DNA from: Bdellovibrionota bacterium
Lineage (GTDB): Bacteria; Bdellovibrionota_C; UBA2361
Assembly (NCBI GenBank): GCA_044352465.1
Contig: JBILDU010000031.1
Location: 1 to 29,739, forward strand
Direction of reading: 5' to 3'
DNA length: 29,739 bases
Below, piece after piece: positions 4,765 through 25,939 of the stretch. Below the pieces are notes generated by a model. It was not told where the DNA came from, made no database searches, and saw only the letters and a program-made list of their open reading frames with translations. Position 1 is the first letter of the stretch, and each line of letters opens with the position of its first letter. The translations under genes and the position numbers were made by a program.

Positions 4765-6915
4765 ATGGGCAACCCAGCCGCCGAACAAATGACCGCACCT
4801 TCATCGAACGGCTCTTCGGGCTCCGGGGAGCTGCTCGACTCATCCGTCATGTCATCTCGTTCGCTGGTATCGCCCGGAGTTGGGTACTCGTCCGTCGGTT
4901 CCTCTGGTGGGACATCTGCGCATCGGTTGGCCCCGTCGGCAGCGCTTGGGCTCCCGAGTAAATACCGGGTAGAGACGGTCGTGTGGCTGAGCTTTTTTGC
5001 TCTGGCGAACGTCCTCTGTTTCCACTTTTTTGCCTACCACATCCCTCCGATCGCACGGAATTTCTCGGCAAATCCCGGCGCAATCGCGATGGTCGAAGGC
5101 GGCCTGCAAGGCCTCTTCGCGCTTGTCTTGGTGGCCGCCTGGGCATGGTTTGACCTTCCGGCTGGTTGGCGGTACCTCCGGAGTGGATCGCTCACCCTTC
5201 CGATACTCCGATTTCTTGCGATTTTGGCTGCGGCCTTGGGAGGCTTTTCGTCGGCTTGGGCTGCTCTCGGTGGTCAGAGCCCTGGACTTGTTTCGATCGG
5301 CCTCTTCCCCCTCGCCAGCCTCGTCTTGGCGGGGCATGCCCTCCTCTGTAGTTGGGTATCGCTGACCGTCGCCCGTCGCACCGGGGTGAGGTATGAGGAT
5401 CGCATCGGTCTTATCAATGTTGTGCCGCACGGTGGGTCGATCGGACTGACCGAGGTGCACGACAAAATGGTGCGCCTGGCGGAGCTTCAGAGCGGAGATC
5501 TGGTGCGCCTGAAGCCCGGTTTCACGGTGCCGTGTGATGCGATAGTGGAGCAGGGGATCGCCGAGGTTGAGGAGGTCAAGCTCTCTGGGTTCGCCACGCT
5601 CCGATTTAAGGGTGAGGGTCAGCGTGTCTATGCGGGCTCGGTAGTTCGCTCGGGCGAGCTCCTCGTGCGAGTTGAGAGCACTTTTGGCGACGCGGTGTTG
5701 TCGAATTTTACCGAGGTTTTGGATGGGGTGATTCGGCGGAATCTGGTTCCTGAGCGCTGGGAGACCCCGCTCCACGCCCTCGTGCTTTTCCTCGGGGCCT
5801 CGGCGGGTATCTACTTCTTCCGTGCCGGCGCCTCCGGGGCTCTGGTCGGCGGCACCGTCGCGGGGGTCCTGGCTACCTCGCTATGGCTCGATCTTCTCGC
5901 TTACCTGCCCCTGCTTCGCGGGGTGGCGATTACTTGGGGTTTTGAGCGGGGCATCTTGTCTGGAGAGCCCCACCAGCTTGAAACTCTTGGGCAGGTGCGG
6001 AATCTCGTTGTCGACCATGCGCCCGGCCATCGGGCTGACGCCTTGCGGGTGGCAGATTTCACGATCGTCGATGAGCGCCTCGATTCGGTGCAATTAACGT
6101 GCGCTTTGCTCTCGATTCTTGGTCGTTCCAACGACGGATTCGGTGGGGCTGCGGCGGAGTTCCTGCGGGGACGGGTGACCGAACCGGTTCTCTACGAGGT
6201 GCGAGATTTCTTCGATTATCCGGGGAAGGGGATCTCTGCGGTCGTCGCTGGTGCTGAATTTAGCATCGGAGATGAACTGTTCCTGCTCGAGCGTGGCGTG
6301 CAGATTCAAGTTTCTGAGGTAGAGGAGGGGATCGACGGTGAGCTTGTGTACGTCGCACTCGGCGAGGAGATCGCCGCCCGATTCACCGTTCATAGAGCCG
6401 CGCGTCTTGAATCCCCGCAAGCGATGGACAAGCTCCACCGCCTTGGTGTGCGCCCCCTTTTAATGAGCCAAGCTCCGTGCGAGGTCGCTGACCTTGCAGG
6501 GAAGGAGTTGAGCTTGGAGTTAGGCCAAATCACTGGGGGACTCTCTCTCGACCAATACGTCGATCGCTTACGGAACGTTTCCCCCGCTGCCCTTGCGTGC
6601 ACACCGGAGACCCCGAGCGAGGTGAGCCGTGCTGCGACTGTGCGGCTCATGGGCTTCGATGAAGTCCGCTTTAATCTCGATCCGAAGGCGATCACTGTTT
6701 TTCGCCCAGGGCTGACGCCTCTTGTAGAAGCCTATGAGCTCGGGCAACGGCTTGTGCGGACCTTAAGGGTGGGACGTGGTGGTGGCGTGTGTTTCGCGCT
6801 CGCAACGGCAGCCTTTGGAGTGATAACCGGGAACCCCTTGCTAGGTTTCTCTCTCGCTCTCTTGGCCCCGCTCTATCTCGTTGGAGCCGCTGCGTTCATT
6901 CGGCGGCCACTGTAA
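4765..6915 (+). CDS. P1B-type (heavy-metal) ATPase-like membrane protein lacking catalytic motifs
   Basis: A-domain (GDLVRLKPGFTVPCDAIVEQG...VYAGSVVRSG), GIL...LETLGQV and N-domain PGKGISA are recognisable, with TM segments in P1B order. TGE, CPC, DKTGT, HP, TGD and GDGxND are all substituted. Confidence 0.85.
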   Translation: MGNPAAEQMTAPSSNGSSGSGELLDSSVMSSRSLVSPGVGYSSVGSSGGTSAHRLAPSAALGLPSKYRVETVVWLSFFALANVLCFHFFAYHIPPIARNFSANPGAIAMVEGGLQGLFALVLVAAWAWFDLPAGWRYLRSGSLTLPILRFLAILAAALGGFSSAWAALGGQSPGLVSIGLFPLASLVLAGHALLCSWVSLTVARRTGVRYEDRIGLINVVPHGGSIGLTEVHDKMVRLAELQSGDLVRLKPGFTVPCDAIVEQGIAEVEEVKLSGFATLRFKGEGQRVYAGSVVRSGELLVRVESTFGDAVLSNFTEVLDGVIRRNLVPERWETPLHALVLFLGASAGIYFFRAGASGALVGGTVAGVLATSLWLDLLAYLPLLRGVAITWGFERGILSGEPHQLETLGQVRNLVVDHAPGHRADALRVADFTIVDERLDSVQLTCALLSILGRSNDGFGGAAAEFLRGRVTEPVLYEVRDFFDYPGKGISAVVAGAEFSIGDELFLLERGVQIQVSEVEEGIDGELVYVALGEEIAARFTVHRAARLESPQAMDKLHRLGVRPLLMSQAPCEVADLAGKELSLELGQITGGLSLDQYVDRLRNVSPAALACTPETPSEVSRAATVRLMGFDEVRFNLDPKAITVFRPGLTPLVEAYELGQRLVRTLRVGRGGGVCFALATAAFGVITGNPLLGFSLALLAPLYLVGAAAFIRRPL

Positions 6916-7186
6916 TCCGCCACGTCGGCTTGCCGCGTGTCCTCTTTCCGGGTGGTCATACCAAGAGGCTCATTTTGGCGAGGCGCGGCCGACACTGTGT
7001 CGGTGGAGCTCGATCTTACCTGGAGTAGGCGAACGGCCGTTCGGTGTCTTTGCTCCCGATTTATTACGGCATCTTTTTGGGCCAGGGCTCATTTTTGCCA
7101 AATTTTTGACACCTTTTTGTCTGCTCCCCGCGTCTTATCCATAGAGGGCGGCAGTAAGTGCCCGAGAAGTCGAAGGGAGACGTCAA

Positions 7187-7552
7187 ATGGGATTCAATCA
7201 GAGCATCGGAGCGGGGGCGCTCGATCTTGGTTTGGGAACGACCGTGTTAGTTGAAGATATGGTCGACGCGGGCAGGGGGTATGCCCACGGCCCGGAGCGG
7301 GCTCTCATGTCGGCGCTTTTATTTGATGGTGTCCAGGCATACATGAGCTACGTATGTGCGGCGGATGAGGAGGTGAAAGCGAGATACCGCGAGGCGTACA
7401 CCTGGGTAACCGCAAAAGAGAGAGAGTATGTTTTCTCGTTTGAGAACGTGTGCGAAGGGTTGGGGCTCGACCCAGAATACCTTCGCCTTGGACTCATTAA
7501 TGCGTGTCACTCTCGTATCGATGGATGGAAGAGGTCGCGCAGGAATTTTTAA
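7187..7552 (+). CDS. Conserved small hypothetical protein (PExxL...W...FxFxxxCExLxLD pattern), paralog A
   Basis: Good RBS (GAAGGGAGA), a downstream terminator, and clear similarity to ORF 8937-9224. Confidence 0.85.
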   Translation: MGFNQSIGAGALDLGLGTTVLVEDMVDAGRGYAHGPERALMSALLFDGVQAYMSYVCAADEEVKARYREAYTWVTAKEREYVFSFENVCEGLGLDPEYLRLGLINACHSRIDGWKRSRRNF

Positions 7553-7587
7553 TCGATCACTCCTACTAGCAACGTAACAGAGCCACG

Positions 7588-7622
7588 GGCCGGTGGGGCG
7601 CAACACCCACCGGCCTTTTTTT
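7588..7622 (+). terminator. Intrinsic terminator
   Basis: GGCCGGTGGG-GCGCAACA-CCCACCGGCC perfect 10-bp stem followed by T7. Confidence 0.9.
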
Positions 7623-7738
7623 GTCATTGCATATCCCGTTGGGCTCCTCGGCCCGTTTGGTTTAATCGGAGACCGGATAGTCGACTGATGCGGAAGCTCC
7701 GTCAGTGGGTCTCTTTCATAGGATCGGGCGGGTCGAGC

Positions 7739-7927
7739 CTACTCTTGCTGATCGGTTGTGGGGGTGCCCACGGATTCTTGTGGATCTAATTCAACCGCTG
7801 GAATCGAGTAGCGCTCGCTCGCCCATGCGCCGAGGTCGAGCAGTTTGCACCGTTCCGAGCAGAAGGGGAAATGGGATCCGCGGCCTTGGAACTCGCTCTG
7901 GCATTGGGGACAACGGGCATCCGACAT
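7739..7927 (-). CDS. yacG: DNA gyrase inhibitor YacG
   Basis: CPQC...FPFCSERCKLLDLGAWASERYSIP is the YacG zinc-finger signature. Confidence 0.95.
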   Translation of the reverse strand: MSDARCPQCQSEFQGRGSHFPFCSERCKLLDLGAWASERYSIPAVELDPQESVGTPTTDQQE

Positions 7928-7968
7928 CGGGCTACGACTCCGCTCGCACGGGGTATGTGACGATAAAA

Positions 7969-8238
7969 TTACTGCTGAGAGAGCTTCTTAATCTTTATTC
8001 GATCGACCCGGATAGCATCTTGGGCGAGGAGCTGCAAATGCTGCAGCACGGAATCTCGACTTAAGTAATCGGAGTCCTCGGGGCTACCCGGCTCGATGTA
8101 GAGAATGTCATCCTCGAAGTGATACGCGGCTATCCGTTGGAGGTAGTTGAGGAGTCCAAGTTGGAGCTTCTCGTCCAGAGCATCGAGGAACTTCTGCCAC
8201 AACTCGGGGTTATTTCCTTTGCTCTGCGGTGAATTCAT
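7969..8238 (-). CDS. Small protein resembling a stand-alone DnaA N-terminal (domain I, KH-like) fold
   Basis: ELWQKFLDALDEKL...LNYLQRI..YHFEDDILYIEPGS..DSDYLSRD...L..LAQD follows the helix-helix-strand-strand-helix pattern of DnaA_N. The ORF itself is well supported; the family call is tentative. Confidence 0.6.
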   Translation of the reverse strand: MNSPQSKGNNPELWQKFLDALDEKLQLGLLNYLQRIAAYHFEDDILYIEPGSPEDSDYLSRDSVLQHLQLLAQDAIRVDRIKIKKLSQQ

Positions 8239-8885
8239 ATATCCCTAGTATACCAGCGCTCGAAAAGACGGGGAAGGTTAAATCAGCTAAGTCGAATCGC
8301 CACAGCCCCTTAAGCGTTGCGTGCGGTATGACTTGTGCTCCCTGTCAGTGCTCGTTGTTTCGAGAGGCCCTCCCGGGTGGAGTGCAATTCGTGCAAGATA
8401 CATAGACCCGTTCCGCGTAGATTTAGTATGAGCCGGGTGGGGAAGGAGTCGCGCGCTTGCGATCGATTCGCGTTTGAGGCTGGGGGAGGATGGCCTTGTT
8501 TGCTCAGGTGCGGGAGTCCTGCCGCTGTGAGCGATTAGCTGGGCGCGTCACCCGATGCCTTCTGTCGTGCCGCACGGTCGGCGCCTGATTCCGGCGTCAA
8601 CGTTCGCGCTGGATTCCTCGCTAGTACTCCGAGCAGAAATTGTTTTATATGAGAGCTGGTGCGGGGGCGGAGTCTTAGCTTTTTTGTCTGGTCCGCCGGC
8701 GGGCTTCGTTCGACTGACTTCGACGAGTTCACGCCGAAGTCTCCCGCCCGCCAAACCCCTGGCAGGTGAAAAAAAGAACTATCGGACCTGCCACCAGGCG
8801 TGTGCTTTGAGGTGTGTCTTCCGACTCGTAGACGTCGGTGTGAGTATCTCTGGCGGCGTTTCGGCGCACGGCCCAGAGCGGGGGT

Positions 8886-8915
8886 AAAAAAAAGCCCCGC
8901 ATCGGCGGAGCTTTT
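8886..8915 (-). terminator. Intrinsic terminator of paralog B
   Basis: Minus strand reads AAAAGCTCCGC-CGAT-GCGGGGC-TTTTTTTT, 21 nt after the stop codon. Confidence 0.88.
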
Positions 8916-8936
8916 CTCGAGTCACAGAGGTAGTAA

Positions 8937-9224
8937 TTAAACCATCGCCTCTTGAGCCATCGCGCCCGGGTTTGCCTGGGCCTGAATATCAATAGCCCGT
9001 CGGAGGCTGTCGCAGTCGAGGTCGAGCGCTTCGCAGATAAAGCGGAAGGTCAACGGGGCATCGGTCGGCTCGTCGTCCATAAGCCATATACGGGCACCCT
9101 CACGAACCTCGCCTTCGCCGCTGACGTAGTCCGTTACCGCGCGTTGCAGGACCGCAGCTAACAAACGCTTCTCCGGAACAATAGAACCGGCGGCGGGGAC
9201 ATCGGAGTTTGACCAGAATTTCAT
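8937..9224 (-). CDS. Conserved small hypothetical protein, paralog B
   Basis: PEKRLLAAVLQRAVTDY...ARIWL...LTFRFICEALDLD aligns with paralog A. RBS GAGGT lies 8 nt before ATG 9224; GTG 9230 is too close to it. Confidence 0.85.
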   Translation of the reverse strand: MKFWSNSDVPAAGSIVPEKRLLAAVLQRAVTDYVSGEGEVREGARIWLMDDEPTDAPLTFRFICEALDLDCDSLRRAIDIQAQANPGAMAQEAMV

Positions 9225-9277
9225 ACTCACTTACCTCGTATTAATGCTTTCTCAACTAACCAAATATCTAAACTCGG

Positions 9278-9530
9278 GTGACAAAAACCCTGTCCCTTGC
9301 TGGAGTAAATCGACAACAGGGCAACGGGGTCACTGAAGCGAAGGGGACACAATCCCCTGGGCTTCAGCCCTAATTTTTAAAATCGAATTTATGCGGTTTT
9401 GGCGCGGCTAAATTCGTGTCTTACGATGGGCGCTCGACTCTCGACGGGAGCTCTTTAACTTTCGCTAGAAGGATACAGCTCCCTAGCCGATTCAGAGGCT
9501 CAACACGTTCATTCGTTTATTTGTGACCCC
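9278..9530 (-). ncRNA. Candidate structured leader RNA or ncRNA of unknown family
   Basis: Nested helices: 9326-9333/9523-9530, 9334-9367, 9384-9416 and 9446-9483 (GAAA-tetraloop tip), plus a U-tailed hairpin at 9283-9321. G-U wobbles favour the minus strand. Confidence 0.55.
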
Positions 9531-9531
9531 A

Positions 9532-9561
9532 AGGATAGTGGAATGACTATTCTAGAGTCAA
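9532..9561 (-). promoter_or_regulatory. Putative sigma70 promoter overlapped by an inverted repeat
   Basis: TTGACT-N18-TATCCT on the minus strand, with a T-tract upstream. TGACT-N7-AGTCA palindrome at 9544-9560. Confidence 0.5.
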
Positions 9562-9935
9562 GAAAAAAAGACAGGCCGACCGCAGCGGTCGGGGAAAGCT
9601 GGAAACAGTGGGAATATAGCTAGTTACGGAGACTCCCGCAAGAGCATTGTAGTAGAAAGTTAATGTTTAGTTCGCCTCGTAAGACTCCTCCCAAGAACCT
9701 GAGATGGGGGAGATATTAGTCGGACCGATACCGAGCGATACGATCGCGATCACATCGGCCGGGCCGTTGTTGAATATTTCGAAGATATCAATTGAGGCAC
9801 CCCGGGAGAGGAACTGGCGGTGGTTTGTCGGTTGCCTTCGCTCGGGTGCGGCGTTGCTGCGGCGGCTCAGCTGAAGCCTTCTCGGTATGGGCGCGGTTTT
9901 ACATCACAGGGATGAGCTGTTATTTTTGACGAGCT

Positions 9936-11195
9936 ATGTCAACCATCGATGTCAGTTCTGTAACCGCAACGAAACCCGTTACCCCGGGTGCTGCCGCACG
10001 CGCCCTTTTCCCCATTTTCTCCGCACATCCGGGTCTGGCGTATCTCGATACTGCGGCGAGTAGTCAAAAACCGCTCGCCGTTATCGAGCGTATGGATCAG
10101 TACTACCGCGCAGAGCACGCGAACATTCACCGGGGAGCGTACGCGCTCAGTGCGAATGCGACGATTCATTATGAGGAGGTTCGGGAGAAAGTCGCCCGAT
10201 TCCTGAATGCGGTCTCCCCCCAGGAGATTGTTTTTACTCGCGGGGCCACCGAATCGGTGAATTTGGTGGCACGGTGTTTCGATCCGTTTCTGAACCCCGG
10301 CGATGTTATTTTGCTCACACTGCTCGAGCACCATAGCAACATCGTGCCGTGGCAGCTCCTCGCGGCTCGTCGAAATGCGCGGGTGGTGTTTGCGGAGGTC
10401 ACGGCGGAGGGCGCGCTTAATCGGCAGGACTTCCTCGACAAGTTACAAGAGTTTCGTCCTAAAATAGTCGGGCTCACCGCGCTCTCCAACGCTCTCGGCA
10501 CGGTAGTGCCGGTAGCAGAGCTCGTCGGTGCAGCGCACGCTGTGGGCGCGAAGGTTCTCGTCGACGGTGCTCAAGCGGTACTCCACGGTTCCGTTGATGT
10601 TCGCGCGATGGATGCCGATTTCTTTGTGTTCTCGGGGCACAAGCTCTACGGTCCCACCGGCGTGGGGGTGTTGTACGGAAAGAAAGCGCATCTGGACGAG
10701 TTCGAGCCGTTTCTGGGGGGTGGCGATATGATTCGGACGGTCACGCCCACCGGCTCCACGTGGGCGGATACCCCGCAGAAATTCGAGGCGGGGACACCCC
10801 CGATCGCTGAGGTAATCGGACTGGGAAGTGCGATCGATTTTGTGAATTCGGTCGGAATCACGCCACTTCAATCATACGAGGAGGAGCTTTTTCACTATGC
10901 TTGGGAGCTGCTCCGGTCTGAGCCCGGTGTGACGGTCTACGGACCAAAGCGAGTAGAGGGGGAGCAGCAGTCGATCATTTCCTTTAATGTCGGCGGTGTT
11001 CACGCTCACGATCTCTCGACGATCGCGGACTCCCTTAAAGTTCAGATTCGCGGCGGGCATCATTGTGCCATGCCGTTGTTGCGCCGTCTCGGCATCCCGG
11101 CCACCGCCCGAGCGAGTCTCGGTGTTTACACGCTCAAGGATGATTTCCTTCCCCTCCTTGAAGCCATTCGGCGAGCGCGGCAACTCTTCACGTAA
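9936..11195 (+). CDS. sufS: Cysteine desulfurase, SufS (group II) family
   Basis: YLDTAASSQKP, EHHSNIVPWQ, FSGHK (PLP lysine), KFEAGTP and RGGHHCA. Confidence 0.95.
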   Translation: MSTIDVSSVTATKPVTPGAAARALFPIFSAHPGLAYLDTAASSQKPLAVIERMDQYYRAEHANIHRGAYALSANATIHYEEVREKVARFLNAVSPQEIVFTRGATESVNLVARCFDPFLNPGDVILLTLLEHHSNIVPWQLLAARRNARVVFAEVTAEGALNRQDFLDKLQEFRPKIVGLTALSNALGTVVPVAELVGAAHAVGAKVLVDGAQAVLHGSVDVRAMDADFFVFSGHKLYGPTGVGVLYGKKAHLDEFEPFLGGGDMIRTVTPTGSTWADTPQKFEAGTPPIAEVIGLGSAIDFVNSVGITPLQSYEEELFHYAWELLRSEPGVTVYGPKRVEGEQQSIISFNVGGVHAHDLSTIADSLKVQIRGGHHCAMPLLRRLGIPATARASLGVYTLKDDFLPLLEAIRRARQLFT

Positions 11196-20786: not shown

Positions 20787-22607
20787 GTGGCTGTACGGAT
20801 AGGCAGTAATATATCGTCGCTGCAGGCGCAACGCCGCGTCGGCGAAGCCACATCGTCGGTGGGTGCGAGCCTATCGCGCCTCTCCTCCGGTCAACGAGTT
20901 AACCGCGCCTCCGACGACGCGGCGGGGCTCGCAATCGCTGATACCCTCCGCACCCGCCGTACGGTGTACGACCGCGGTGCTAAAAACGTGAGCGACGGCG
21001 TGAGCCTCCTTACTATCGCCGATTCAGCGATTGGAGAGCTCGCGGGGCTCACGACCCGAATCCTCGAACTCGCCGAGCAAGGGGCGAACGGGGTTTACTC
21101 TGTGGCCCAACGGAAGGCGATGGATACCGAGGCGCAACGGCTTCGGGACGAGTTCCTCCGCATCTCTCGCTCGACTCAGTTCAACGGGCTGAACCTCTTC
21201 GACGGCTCGATCCAAGGGTTGCGTATCCAAGCTGGTTTGGGTGTCGATGGGGGTGTCGCCTCATCGCTCGGTGGGAAGCTCGGGAGTGGGTACGTTGTCG
21301 ATGGATCGGGCCAGACTATTCTTGGGAACGTTCAGAGTTCAACGGTTGCGGATTTTAGTGGAGACGGGGTCACCGATGTCGTAGGCTGGGCGGGCGCGGG
21401 GCTCGCTTTTCAGGCCGGTCTTGGGAACGGAACATTCTCCGCTGCGACGACCTTGACAACCAGTGCCACACCGTACGGTTTCGAAGCCGCGGATTTCAAT
21501 AACGATGGGGCGCTTGACCTCGTTGGTGCGGTAGGTACCGCAACCCTCTCGGTCTTTCTTAATAATCGGGTGGGTGGTTTTAACCCGGCAACGAGCGTCA
21601 CCACCGGGGGAGCGGCGTCGTTGATTGCCGTCGTCGATGCCAACAGCGACGGTCGGATGGACATCGTTACTGCCACGAACAACCTCGCCGGAAACGATAC
21701 GTTATCGCTGTTGCTTGGAAACGGTTCGGGGGGCTTCGCCGCACCGAGTACTATCTCCCTTGGGACCGGGTTTGATCCGAATGCTCTGGAGGCGGGAGAT
21801 TTTAATGGGGATGGAGTGACCGATCTCTTACTACTGTCTAATGCTGGTTCGTCCGTGGTGTATCGAGGAAACGGCGTTGGGGGCTTCACCCTCCAGAACT
21901 CTACAAGTGGACCGTATCTTAACGCCACCGTGGGCGATTTTAACGGCGATGGGATCTCCGATTTCGCCCAGAGTGATGCGGGGACTGTGGAGGTGTGGCT
22001 CGGGTCCCAAAGCGGTACTTTCACCCTATCCTCGTCGTTATCTGGTAATCAAGTCGGTGTCGGCGATATGAACGGTGATAGCGCGCTCGATATTATCACC
22101 ACCGATGGCGATAATAACTCTTTCTCGATTCTCCTTGGGAACGGTAGTGGTGGGTTTTCCGATTCGGGGATGCAAGGAGTTGGATTTCTTCCAAGCATCG
22201 CCACCGGTGATGTCGATGGTGACGGGGTGACCGATATCGTGGCGAGTGGTTATACCCCGTTTCTCGGCAAGACTCGGGACGGCATCAACCCGATTCAGCC
22301 GTTCTCACTCCTTACCCAGGCGGATGCGCGCCAAGCGATAGCTCCGCTCACCCGTAAGCTTGAGGAGCTCAGTAAACAGCGGGGCGTTATCGGCGCCTTT
22401 CAATCCCGCCTCGCGAGCGCGTCGCTCAGCGCCTCATCTCAAAGCGACGGATTTCGGGCGGCGGAGTCGCGGATTCGGGATGTCGATGTAGCGCAGGAGG
22501 CTGCCCGGCTCGTCGGCTCTCAGATCCGGCAACAAGCTGCCACTGCGGTTCTCGCGCAGGCGAATCTCCAGCCGAGCCTCGCACTTCAGCTGCTCGCAAT
22601 TTCCTAA
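20787..22607 (+). CDS. Flagellin with seven inserted FG-GAP/VCBS repeats
   Basis: N-terminus has RLSSGQRVNRASDDAAGLAI and TQFNG.NL; C-terminus has RGVIGAFQSRL, ESRIRDVDVAQE and VLAQAN. The centre holds seven DxxxDGxxD-type repeats. RBS GGAGGT. Confidence 0.93.
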   Translation: MAVRIGSNISSLQAQRRVGEATSSVGASLSRLSSGQRVNRASDDAAGLAIADTLRTRRTVYDRGAKNVSDGVSLLTIADSAIGELAGLTTRILELAEQGANGVYSVAQRKAMDTEAQRLRDEFLRISRSTQFNGLNLFDGSIQGLRIQAGLGVDGGVASSLGGKLGSGYVVDGSGQTILGNVQSSTVADFSGDGVTDVVGWAGAGLAFQAGLGNGTFSAATTLTTSATPYGFEAADFNNDGALDLVGAVGTATLSVFLNNRVGGFNPATSVTTGGAASLIAVVDANSDGRMDIVTATNNLAGNDTLSLLLGNGSGGFAAPSTISLGTGFDPNALEAGDFNGDGVTDLLLLSNAGSSVVYRGNGVGGFTLQNSTSGPYLNATVGDFNGDGISDFAQSDAGTVEVWLGSQSGTFTLSSSLSGNQVGVGDMNGDSALDIITTDGDNNSFSILLGNGSGGFSDSGMQGVGFLPSIATGDVDGDGVTDIVASGYTPFLGKTRDGINPIQPFSLLTQADARQAIAPLTRKLEELSKQRGVIGAFQSRLASASLSASSQSDGFRAAESRIRDVDVAQEAARLVGSQIRQQAATAVLAQANLQPSLALQLLAIS

Positions 22608-25748: not shown

Positions 25749-25939
25749 GGAGGGCTCGCCTCTGTCGAGCCGTGCTCGTGTTACCGGTAGCGCCACGGCC
25801 GGACAGAGTCCGGCCCTCCACGCTGCGTTGCAATTACCCACGGCAGCGTTGAACTCTCTGACCTTATGGAGGGTTCGCCTCTGTCGAGCCTTGCGTGTAT
25901 CACCGCTGACGCTTTGGCCGGACAGAGTCCGGCCCTCCA
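25749..25939. repeat. Two tandem REP doublets (REPIN/BIME-like)
   Basis: GGAGGG(C/T)TCGCCTCTGTCGAGCC at 25749 and 25868, each paired with an inverted GGCCGGACAGAGTCCGGCCCTCCA at 25797 and 25916. Period 119 bp; between convergent genes. Confidence 0.85.

Follow-up and report, generated by a model that had tools for sequence, protein, structure and literature searches.

A putative structured 5′ leader, maintained by selection, upstream of a small-protein gene in an uncultured Bdellovibrionota lineage

Introduction

When a stretch of intergenic DNA folds well, does it encode an RNA, and if so, on which strand and for which gene? The question is raised by a contig of a metagenome-derived Bdellovibrionota genome (3.13 Mb in 170 contigs), analysed here over 29,739 nt (the window), in which a 711-bp gap separates two divergent genes: paralog B on the minus strand and a cysteine desulfurase gene on the plus strand. 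The gap contains a structured stretch that an earlier note, made from the letters alone, had described as a large, closed multi-helix RNA with mutually exclusive pairings, and had read as an undescribed riboswitch or attenuator, or else as a co-transcribed non-coding RNA.

Leaders of several kinds could serve as models for such an element. Attenuator leaders, in which an intrinsic terminator precedes the first gene, are known from the trp, pyr, bgl and T-box operons of Bacillus, where they are controlled by proteins or by tRNA. Small, highly expressed proteins can have lineage-specific autoregulatory leaders, as exemplified by ribosomal-protein leaders and the long 5′ untranslated regions of the cspA type. 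In Bdellovibrio, an abundant RNA of B. bacteriovorus reportedly contains a c-di-GMP riboswitch.

Results

The structured stretch and its neighbours are listed in Table 1. The stretch is single copy, as BLAST matched only the stretch itself in the whole assembly (next best E 1.38). This argues against a dispersed repeat of the REP/BIME or MITE kind, which requires several copies in its own genome.

Table 1. Features of the paralog-B locus, in window coordinates; L070 is the close relative introduced in the text
Feature	Positions	Strand	Details
Paralog A gene	7187-7552	plus	Protein 30% identical to paralog B
Intrinsic terminator closing the paralog-B transcription unit	8886-8911	minus	Hairpin plus U8; -19.4 kcal/mol, z -4.07
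Paralog-B gene	8937-9224	minus	95-aa protein; ATG 9224-9222; Shine-Dalgarno GAGG 9237-9234
Putative 5′ leader of paralog-B mRNA (ends predicted)	9225-9527	minus	~300 nt, non-coding
Terminator-like element	9278-9328	minus	CCC (9328-9326) and CCCUGUUG (9321-9314) pair with CAGCAAGGG (9302-9294) and GGG (9290-9288)
Hairpin GCUGAAGC..AGGGGA-UUGUG-UCCCCU..GCUUCAGU	9332-9368	minus	14/14 pairs kept in L070
Hairpin CGAAUUUA-GCC-GCG-CCAAAAC-CGC-A-UAAAUUCG	9384-9416	minus	-7.4 kcal/mol, z -2.70
Small hairpin GUC..GCG-loop-CGU..GAC	9418-9438	minus	RNAalifold consensus; two one-sided changes in L070, pairs kept
Hairpin GGGAGC(U)...(A)GCUCCC, variable tip	9446-9483	minus	-13.5 kcal/mol, z -2.57; 6-bp base identical in L070
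Hairpin AGCC-UCUGAAUC-GGCU	9485-9500	minus	Kept in L070, where two C-to-U changes produce G-U pairs
Conserved unpaired 5′ segment AAACGAAUGAACGUGU	9503-9518	minus	CGAAU/GAACG half-sites; GAACGAGCGAACGAG in L070
Promoter	9532-9569	minus	T7 run 9569-9563; -35 TTGACT 9561-9556; -10 TATCCT 9537-9532
SufS-type cysteine desulfurase gene	9936-11195	plus	Far side of the 711-bp gap

Paralog B encodes a small protein for which searches of Pfam, PHROGs and NCBIfam returned no family. Its predicted structure has four helices (mean pLDDT 81); Foldseek found no match in the PDB at E<=0.001, the best VIA-align Z of 5.4 is in the noise range for helical bundles, and the ESM Atlas yielded 'hypothetical' clusters only, some of them viral. 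The gene is widespread among relatives, with ortholog-level matches in 53 of 60 related genomes (57-76% identity, E <= 1.5e-25); the seven genomes without one are 55-86% complete. Family members usually number two to six per genome, and further proteins are known at 78-99% identity to paralog B. Over 76 orthologous loci, the ortholog-bearing genomes all belong to uncultured Bdellovibrionota, 'Bdellovibrionales' or unclassified bacteria, and none is from a cultured organism.

Several other features of the window were recorded. Downstream of paralog B, about 700 bp (8239-8936) contain neither an Rfam match nor a family-matching ORF (8555-8887, plus strand, was tested against Pfam). Beyond them lie an ORF of 89 aa that has no family (7969-8238, minus strand) and a YacG-like zinc-finger protein of 62 aa (7739-7927, minus strand; NCBIfam NF001638 at 52.3 bits, under the 83-bit cut-off). 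Paralog A is also preceded by a gap, of 270 nt (6916-7186, plus strand), in which a TTTTTGTC motif 72 nt before the ATG resembles one in the paralog-B leader. A perfect palindrome upstream of paralog A (7029-7043, CGAACGGCCGUUCG / CGAACGGCCGTTCG) was flagged as terminator-like; it was considered as a second operator but resembles the hairpin of a terminator for the ATPase gene upstream. Farther away, the window encodes a flagellin whose N- and C-terminal flagellin domains flank a central insert of FG-GAP repeats (20787-22607, plus strand), and holds two direct repeats of 72 nt, 83% alike, with GGAGGG...CCCTCC brackets (25749-25939).

We compared the fold of the stretch with that of shuffled sequence. 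Every helix arm named in the earlier note was found in its place on the minus strand, including GGGGUCAC (9530-9523), GUGACCCC (9333-9326) and a second GUCAC (9282-9278), as was the CCCUGU..ACAGGG hairpin with U5 (9287-9283) after it. The folding energy of the 271-nt stretch is -89.3 kcal/mol; 200 dinucleotide shuffles give -73.65 +/- 4.63 (z -3.38), and only one of them is as good. Single hairpins reach z values of -2.6 to -2.7, the terminator-like element just -1.0. The two strands are nearly equal, a 260-nt piece giving z -2.84 against -2.95 on the opposite strand, so that the strand cannot be picked by thermodynamics alone. Alternative pairings do exist in the window: GACACG and CGAAUUUA share a CG, and a full CGUGUU/GACACG helix is therefore incompatible with CGAAUUUA/UAAAUUCG; GGGC-UGAA-GCCC (9370-9359), seen in the fold, is an alternative to CUGAAGC/GCUUCAG and competes with its outer arm.

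Known RNA families do not account for the stretch. Rfam 15 gave no match at gathering scores in the whole window, its c-di-GMP, c-di-AMP and cGAMP riboswitch classes included, and at E<=10 on 8900-9900 only chance-level rows, none near threshold (the best inside the stretch were rliI, 16.9 bits versus 45, on the plus strand, and FuFi-1, 14 bits versus 59.6). ARAGORN found no genes, and 20 orthologous loci likewise had no Rfam match. The judgement that this is not a known riboswitch, 6S, SRP, tmRNA or T-box RNA thus stands, and the RNA is undescribed after the Rfam scan that had been proposed as a check on its novelty.

Relatives of the RNA are equally scarce. A BLAST search of 60 related genomes gave no homologue, its best non-self match covering 25 nt at E 0.0037. 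Two sets of orthologous upstream regions, 72 and 74 in number, gave blastn and nhmmer no match except a single metagenome locus, L070, and a covariance model (R1, 9416-9272) run on the 60 genomes and 148 orthologous loci matched L070 alone. The leader of L072, whose protein is 84% identical to paralog B, is unrelated and A+T-rich. The leader RNA is lineage-restricted, known from the source bacterium and one near relative alone.

L070, from a scan of metagenome contigs with the paralog-B protein that gave 52 loci, is the sole close relative carrying the RNA; its protein is 95% identical and it offers 865 nt of upstream sequence. In a global alignment of the two loci, only 32-51% of columns are identical on the far side of the promoter and past the gene, where the DNA can hardly be aligned. 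The promoter elements (T-run, -35, spacer palindrome and -10) show next to no difference, the RNA is conserved blockwise, and so are the ribosome-binding site and the gene as a whole. Conservation ends right after GUCACCCGAG (9282-9273), and the next 35-45 nt up to the Shine-Dalgarno sequence are not conserved. In the paralog-B gene, 26 of 45 fourfold-degenerate sites (58%) and 42 of 96 third codon positions differ. The 3′ half of the RNA (9416-9272) differs at only 21 of 145 positions (14.5%), and set against the fourfold-degenerate sites this low divergence indicates strong purifying selection on the 3′ half. Selection on the 5′ half (9527-9417, 41 of 111 positions differing) is weak.

L070 retains AGCC/GGCU, GGGAGC/GCUCCC, the 9438-9418 hairpin, CGAAUUUA/UAAAUUCG with the inner GCG/CGC, GCUGAAGC/GCUUCAG with the inner AGGGGA/UCCCCU, and the terminator-like stem. 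All 11 pairs of the 9384-9416 hairpin are identical, with differences confined to loop bases, and three of the 14 pairs of the 9332-9368 hairpin show a one-sided, G-U-compatible change. Over the 3′ half, 36/36 pairs are standard in both sequences, four of them changed, on one side only. An RNAalifold consensus of the window and L070 consists of local hairpins only; its 63 pairs, a generous count in that the structure was derived from the same two sequences, include 11 one-sided changes, all still paired, no two-sided change and no broken pair. When the minimum-free-energy fold of the window alone is laid on L070, 53 of 79 pairs are unchanged, 12 are changed but kept and 14 are broken; 65/79 are standard, versus 24-38/79 when partners are slid by 1-3, and differing bases make up 28 of 158 paired and 37 of 102 unpaired positions. 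The broken pairs are long-range and tip pairs. Since L070 is the only relative with the RNA, no compensatory double change is seen.

All the one-sided stem changes give G-U pairs on the minus strand; the plus strand would have A-C instead. This, the promoter and the orientation of the gene jointly fix the RNA to the minus strand, where the earlier note had placed it.

The long-range architecture fared differently. All eight pairs of the proposed closing helix GGGGUCAC/GUGACCCC fail in L070, where CUCCUCCU stands opposite GGGGUCAC. The second GUCAC was said to compete for the same GUGAC, but the 3′ arm in L070 lacks the U of GUGAC and the competing pairing is lost; the UAGC/GUUA tip is replaced by a different, longer tip hairpin; and the CGUGUU/GACACG helix, whose arms are both present in the window, loses one pair. 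With these pairings lost and the local hairpins kept, the element consists of local hairpins in series, and is no closed junction of several helices with competing pairings as had been proposed. Conservation among relatives holds in part: the 3′ half is under selection and the hairpins are kept in L070, but no other homologue was found in the 60 genomes and 148 loci, and no double-sided change is seen.

Other comparisons concern the same region. No small ORF in the leader is common to the window and L070, as the ORFs differ and indels break the frames; a leader peptide was rejected on this ground. Within the RNA, contigs from four lake DNA runs vary at only three positions (9276 G>A, 9305 G>A and 9423 A>G on the plus strand), all outside stems and too few for a test of the structure. 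Upstream, a 15-nt block, TAACTAGCTATATTC (~9622-9608, minus strand, with CTTGC upstream of it), is conserved with L070 amid surroundings (9600-9644) that are not. Read as TTGCGG-17-TATATT, the block may be a second promoter, some 75 nt upstream of the main one; in L072, a comparable place is occupied by two copies of AACTAGCTT.

The promoter is conserved far beyond L070. Scanned from 6900 to 10000, the minus strand has a single promoter-like site, TTGACT-18-TATCCT (9561-9532), with no second one between 9531 and 9225. Judged from its position, transcription would start near 9525 (+/- 2). The earlier note's caveat, that a start near 9525 would clip the 5′ strand of the closing helix, is borne out by this order-conserved promoter. 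A hairpin plus T7 at 9592-9563, tried as a terminator, was set aside and read as an upstream promoter element, the stem being lost in L070 and the T-run alone kept.

The 18-nt promoter spacer contains a palindrome, GAAT-AGTC-ATTC (9552-9541). The layout of a T-run and TTGACT-nn-CGAAT-N4-GTTCGG-TA recurs at 15 of 72 orthologous loci, 159-670 nt upstream of the ortholog (L106 and L107 being identical), and again in 10 of 74 species representatives, of which seven are genomes already counted; the paralog-B proteins of these loci range in identity from 53% to 100%. At up to 2 mismatches, the promoter/operator occurs exactly once per genome in 5/5 genomes, always at the paralog-B ortholog, and a reversed control occurs nowhere. 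As the promoter/operator is both order-conserved and unique in each genome, the palindrome is probably the operator of a dedicated DNA-binding regulator of initiation. That the paralog-B product is its own regulator is a guess.

The palindrome resembles the Cheo-box, the LexA operator of Gram-positive bacteria (GAAC-N4-GTTC): CGAAT-N4-GTTCG matches it in half-sites, in spacing and in overlapping the promoter. It differs, however, in being unique in each tested genome, and the lexA gene of the source genome has no such box in the 400 nt upstream. An SOS/LexA operator was rejected on both counts (one site per genome in 5/5 genomes, no box at lexA). Half-sites also recur inside the leaders: in 7 of the 14 leaders with an operator promoter, one lies <=20 nt from the putative start, and leaders with the operator hold 33 half-sites versus 19.3 expected, a mild enrichment. 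This recurrence may explain the conserved unpaired segment at 9518-9503, which is possibly a second operator at the DNA level. In three loci (L108, L044 and L057) a strong hairpin and U-run stand within ~50 nt past the conserved promoter and could mark a very short transcript or an early pause site in the leader.

At its other end, the leader carries the terminator-like element, in which the stem (9328-9288) is followed by U5 and then by GUCAC, about 55-59 nt before the ATG. With an 11-nt loop and -14.7 kcal/mol (z -1.02), the hairpin is moderately stable at best and makes a weak terminator, unlike the strong one behind paralog B. A stem-loop and U-run thus lie in the leader as in an attenuator, 5′ of the start codon and on the coding strand; between the window and L070, we identified no conserved antiterminator pairing that would exclude this stem. 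In L070 the stem is kept and the loop is 10/11 identical. The U-run after the stem is weakened there, yet a second hairpin and U-run come next, which suggests that a termination or pausing signal of some kind is maintained at the leader end. An anti-Shine-Dalgarno role for the conserved loop was discarded, as its 7-bp complementarity to GGUAAGU was matched or beaten by 319 of 1000 shuffled loops.

We then turn to the leaders of the orthologs at large. Long upstream regions are the rule for paralog-B orthologs; the sense strand folds with a mean z of -1.83 versus -1.31 for the antisense strand, and 18/48 regions fall below -2. A strict hairpin-plus-U-run was found in the last 200 nt of 20/67 leaders (0.34 per sequence versus 0.19 in shuffles), and a GG..UUUGUC motif related to the terminator-like element at 11/72 loci, 29-127 nt before the ATG. 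With these frequencies and with no consistent closing helix definable, the terminator was rejected as a family trait. Attenuation is thus not a conserved feature of the gene; at the paralog-B leader it is plausible, and not as a family-wide rule.

A separate clade of metagenome contigs (L083, L111, L086, L080 and L077) has its own conserved leader of the orthologous gene. In these five loci, 10 of 53 consensus pairs are changed on both sides. The L083-clade leader has the invariant blocks AGUGUA.C.CAC, GUGACGA.GGUCAU, GGUUGGUUUUAUCUGGUG and AACUUUUUGAUGGGAC and a predicted AGAAAG/CUUUUU pairing beside the ribosome-binding site; Rfam returned no family for the leaders of L083, L086 and L111.

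Discussion

A chance spacer is disfavoured as a reading of this locus: on the comparative sequence evidence, the structured element is real and selectively conserved. Our preferred account, to which we give about an even chance, is that the stretch forms the ~300-nt 5′ untranslated leader of the paralog-B mRNA, structured, cis-acting, fast-evolving and equipped with a weak internal terminator. Initiation would take place near 9525, at a sigma-70-type promoter with the palindrome GAAT-N4-ATTC in its spacer, probably under the control of a dedicated DNA-binding regulator, possibly the paralog-B product. The leader RNA would fold as a row of local hairpins, the last of them being moderately stable and followed by a U-run ~55 nt ahead of the start codon, and as no second promoter is visible, the paralog-B ORF would depend on read-through of that hairpin. 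The leader would then most likely set the amount of full-length mRNA in cis, via partial premature termination, and perhaps affect mRNA stability or translation. A protein, an sRNA or a physical cue appears likelier as the trigger than a metabolite. The leader may double as a small RNA, and part of its conservation could act at the DNA level via CGAAT/ATTCG half-sites.

The interpretation of the earlier note is supported in part: it rightly placed on the minus strand an undescribed RNA that would be transcribed together with paralog B and has a hairpin and U-run at its end, whereas the riboswitch part is weak, with no homologue at 148 orthologs or in 60 genomes. An independent sRNA of ~245 nt (~9525 to 9283), with its own promoter and terminator and acting in trans, would account for a conserved block framed by the promoter, the terminator-like hairpin and U5, for the stop of conservation after GUCACCCGAG, and for a 3′ half, the functional part of many sRNAs, that is the most conserved; a last-hairpin loop with 10 of 11 nt identical is also unusual for a plain terminator. 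However, that terminator is weak, the gene would have to be served by leak-through or by an unrecognised promoter (the ORF has no promoter-like site past the hairpin), and throughout the order it is the protein gene, and not the RNA sequence, that the conserved promoter accompanies; we hold such an sRNA to be rather unlikely. Very unlikely, in our estimate, is a metabolite or second-messenger riboswitch using the terminator hairpin as its expression platform. A structured leader followed by a hairpin and U-run is a fitting layout for one, mutually exclusive pairings exist (GGGC-UGAA-GCCC versus CUGAAGC/GCUUCAG) and unpaired segments are conserved with L070. Yet Rfam offers no family, cyclic-dinucleotide classes included; the proposed closing and switch helices are not conserved; the core occurs in the window and L070 only, and not across many taxa or before several genes; and the gene downstream encodes a small protein without a family, neither metabolic nor transport, so that no pathway names a ligand. 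A ligand-binding aptamer would be expected to persist, but here the gene is conserved and the RNA has no homologue by sequence or covariance model, which weakens the riboswitch reading further.

It is also conceivable that the inverted repeats are conserved as DNA, binding the regulator of the promoter palindrome or nucleoid proteins, with the RNA fold incidental. CGAAT/ATTCG recurs at 9512-9508, 9416-9412 and 9388-9384, CGAAUUUA/UAAAUUCG being built from the half-site, and both the mild enrichment of half-sites in operator-bearing leaders and the equal fold z of the two strands agree with this. We nevertheless think it improbable: one-sided stem changes give G-U pairs on the minus strand, where cruciforms or the other strand would have A-C mismatches; hairpins that lack half-sites (GGGAGC/GCUCCC, GCUGAAGC/GCUUCAG, AGGGGA/UCCCCU) are equally conserved; and the half-sites in CGAAUUUA..UAAAUUCG are spaced by 23 nt versus N4 in the operator. 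A functionless chance fold in a drifting intergenic spacer has for it that the RNA is known from one relative only, that there is no compensatory double change, and that good folding is common in G+C-rich spacers. A divergence of 14.5% in the 3′ half versus 58% at fourfold-degenerate sites, beside flanks that cannot be aligned, and a fold that 1/200 shuffles equals make it the reading we credit least of all.

The mRNA leader that we prefer shares with the attenuator leaders of Bacillus a long structured 5′ region on the strand of the gene, a hairpin and U-run not far ahead of the ribosome-binding site, a gene that has no separate promoter, and the availability of alternative pairings. It differs from them in having no recognisable conserved antiterminator/terminator pair and only a weak terminator, in the absence of T-box, RAT or other known binding motifs (Rfam being negative), and in the gene regulated, which encodes a small protein that has no described family. 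With ribosomal-protein and cspA-type leaders it has in common a very conserved small protein behind a selected, structured leader that differs between lineages. The turnover of the leader here, however, is between genera and not phyla, binding of the leader by the paralog-B protein is hypothetical, and that protein has no convincing fold match. Within the same phylum, an abundant non-coding RNA is reported from Bdellovibrio bacteriovorus (PMC3627812). The likeness lies in a non-coding RNA element from the same phylum and in the idea of a cyclic dinucleotide; the differences are that the paralog-B leader matches no cyclic-dinucleotide riboswitch model in Rfam 15 and that its order consists of uncultured genomes only.

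If our preferred account is true, the locus adds another structured, selectively maintained mRNA leader, mainly a matter of annotation for an uncultured Bdellovibrionota lineage, and the fate of the long-range helices is a reminder that riboswitch calls from single-sequence folds warrant caution. More interesting than the RNA is the wider pattern of a near-invariant protein, a once-per-genome promoter/operator and long leaders that have structure in most relatives yet no relation in sequence, which marks the paralog-B gene as a tightly controlled regulator that merits characterisation. A bolder reading, which we consider a long shot, is that an order-wide, near-invariant 95-aa protein stands behind a genome-unique promoter/operator while each lineage has rebuilt its structured leader, the leader being a sensor (of a protein, an sRNA, temperature or a new ligand) that gates a key regulator, and 9416-9272 being the version of this lineage. 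Were that so, the regulatory layout of the family would have been conserved while the RNA that carries it out turned over rapidly.
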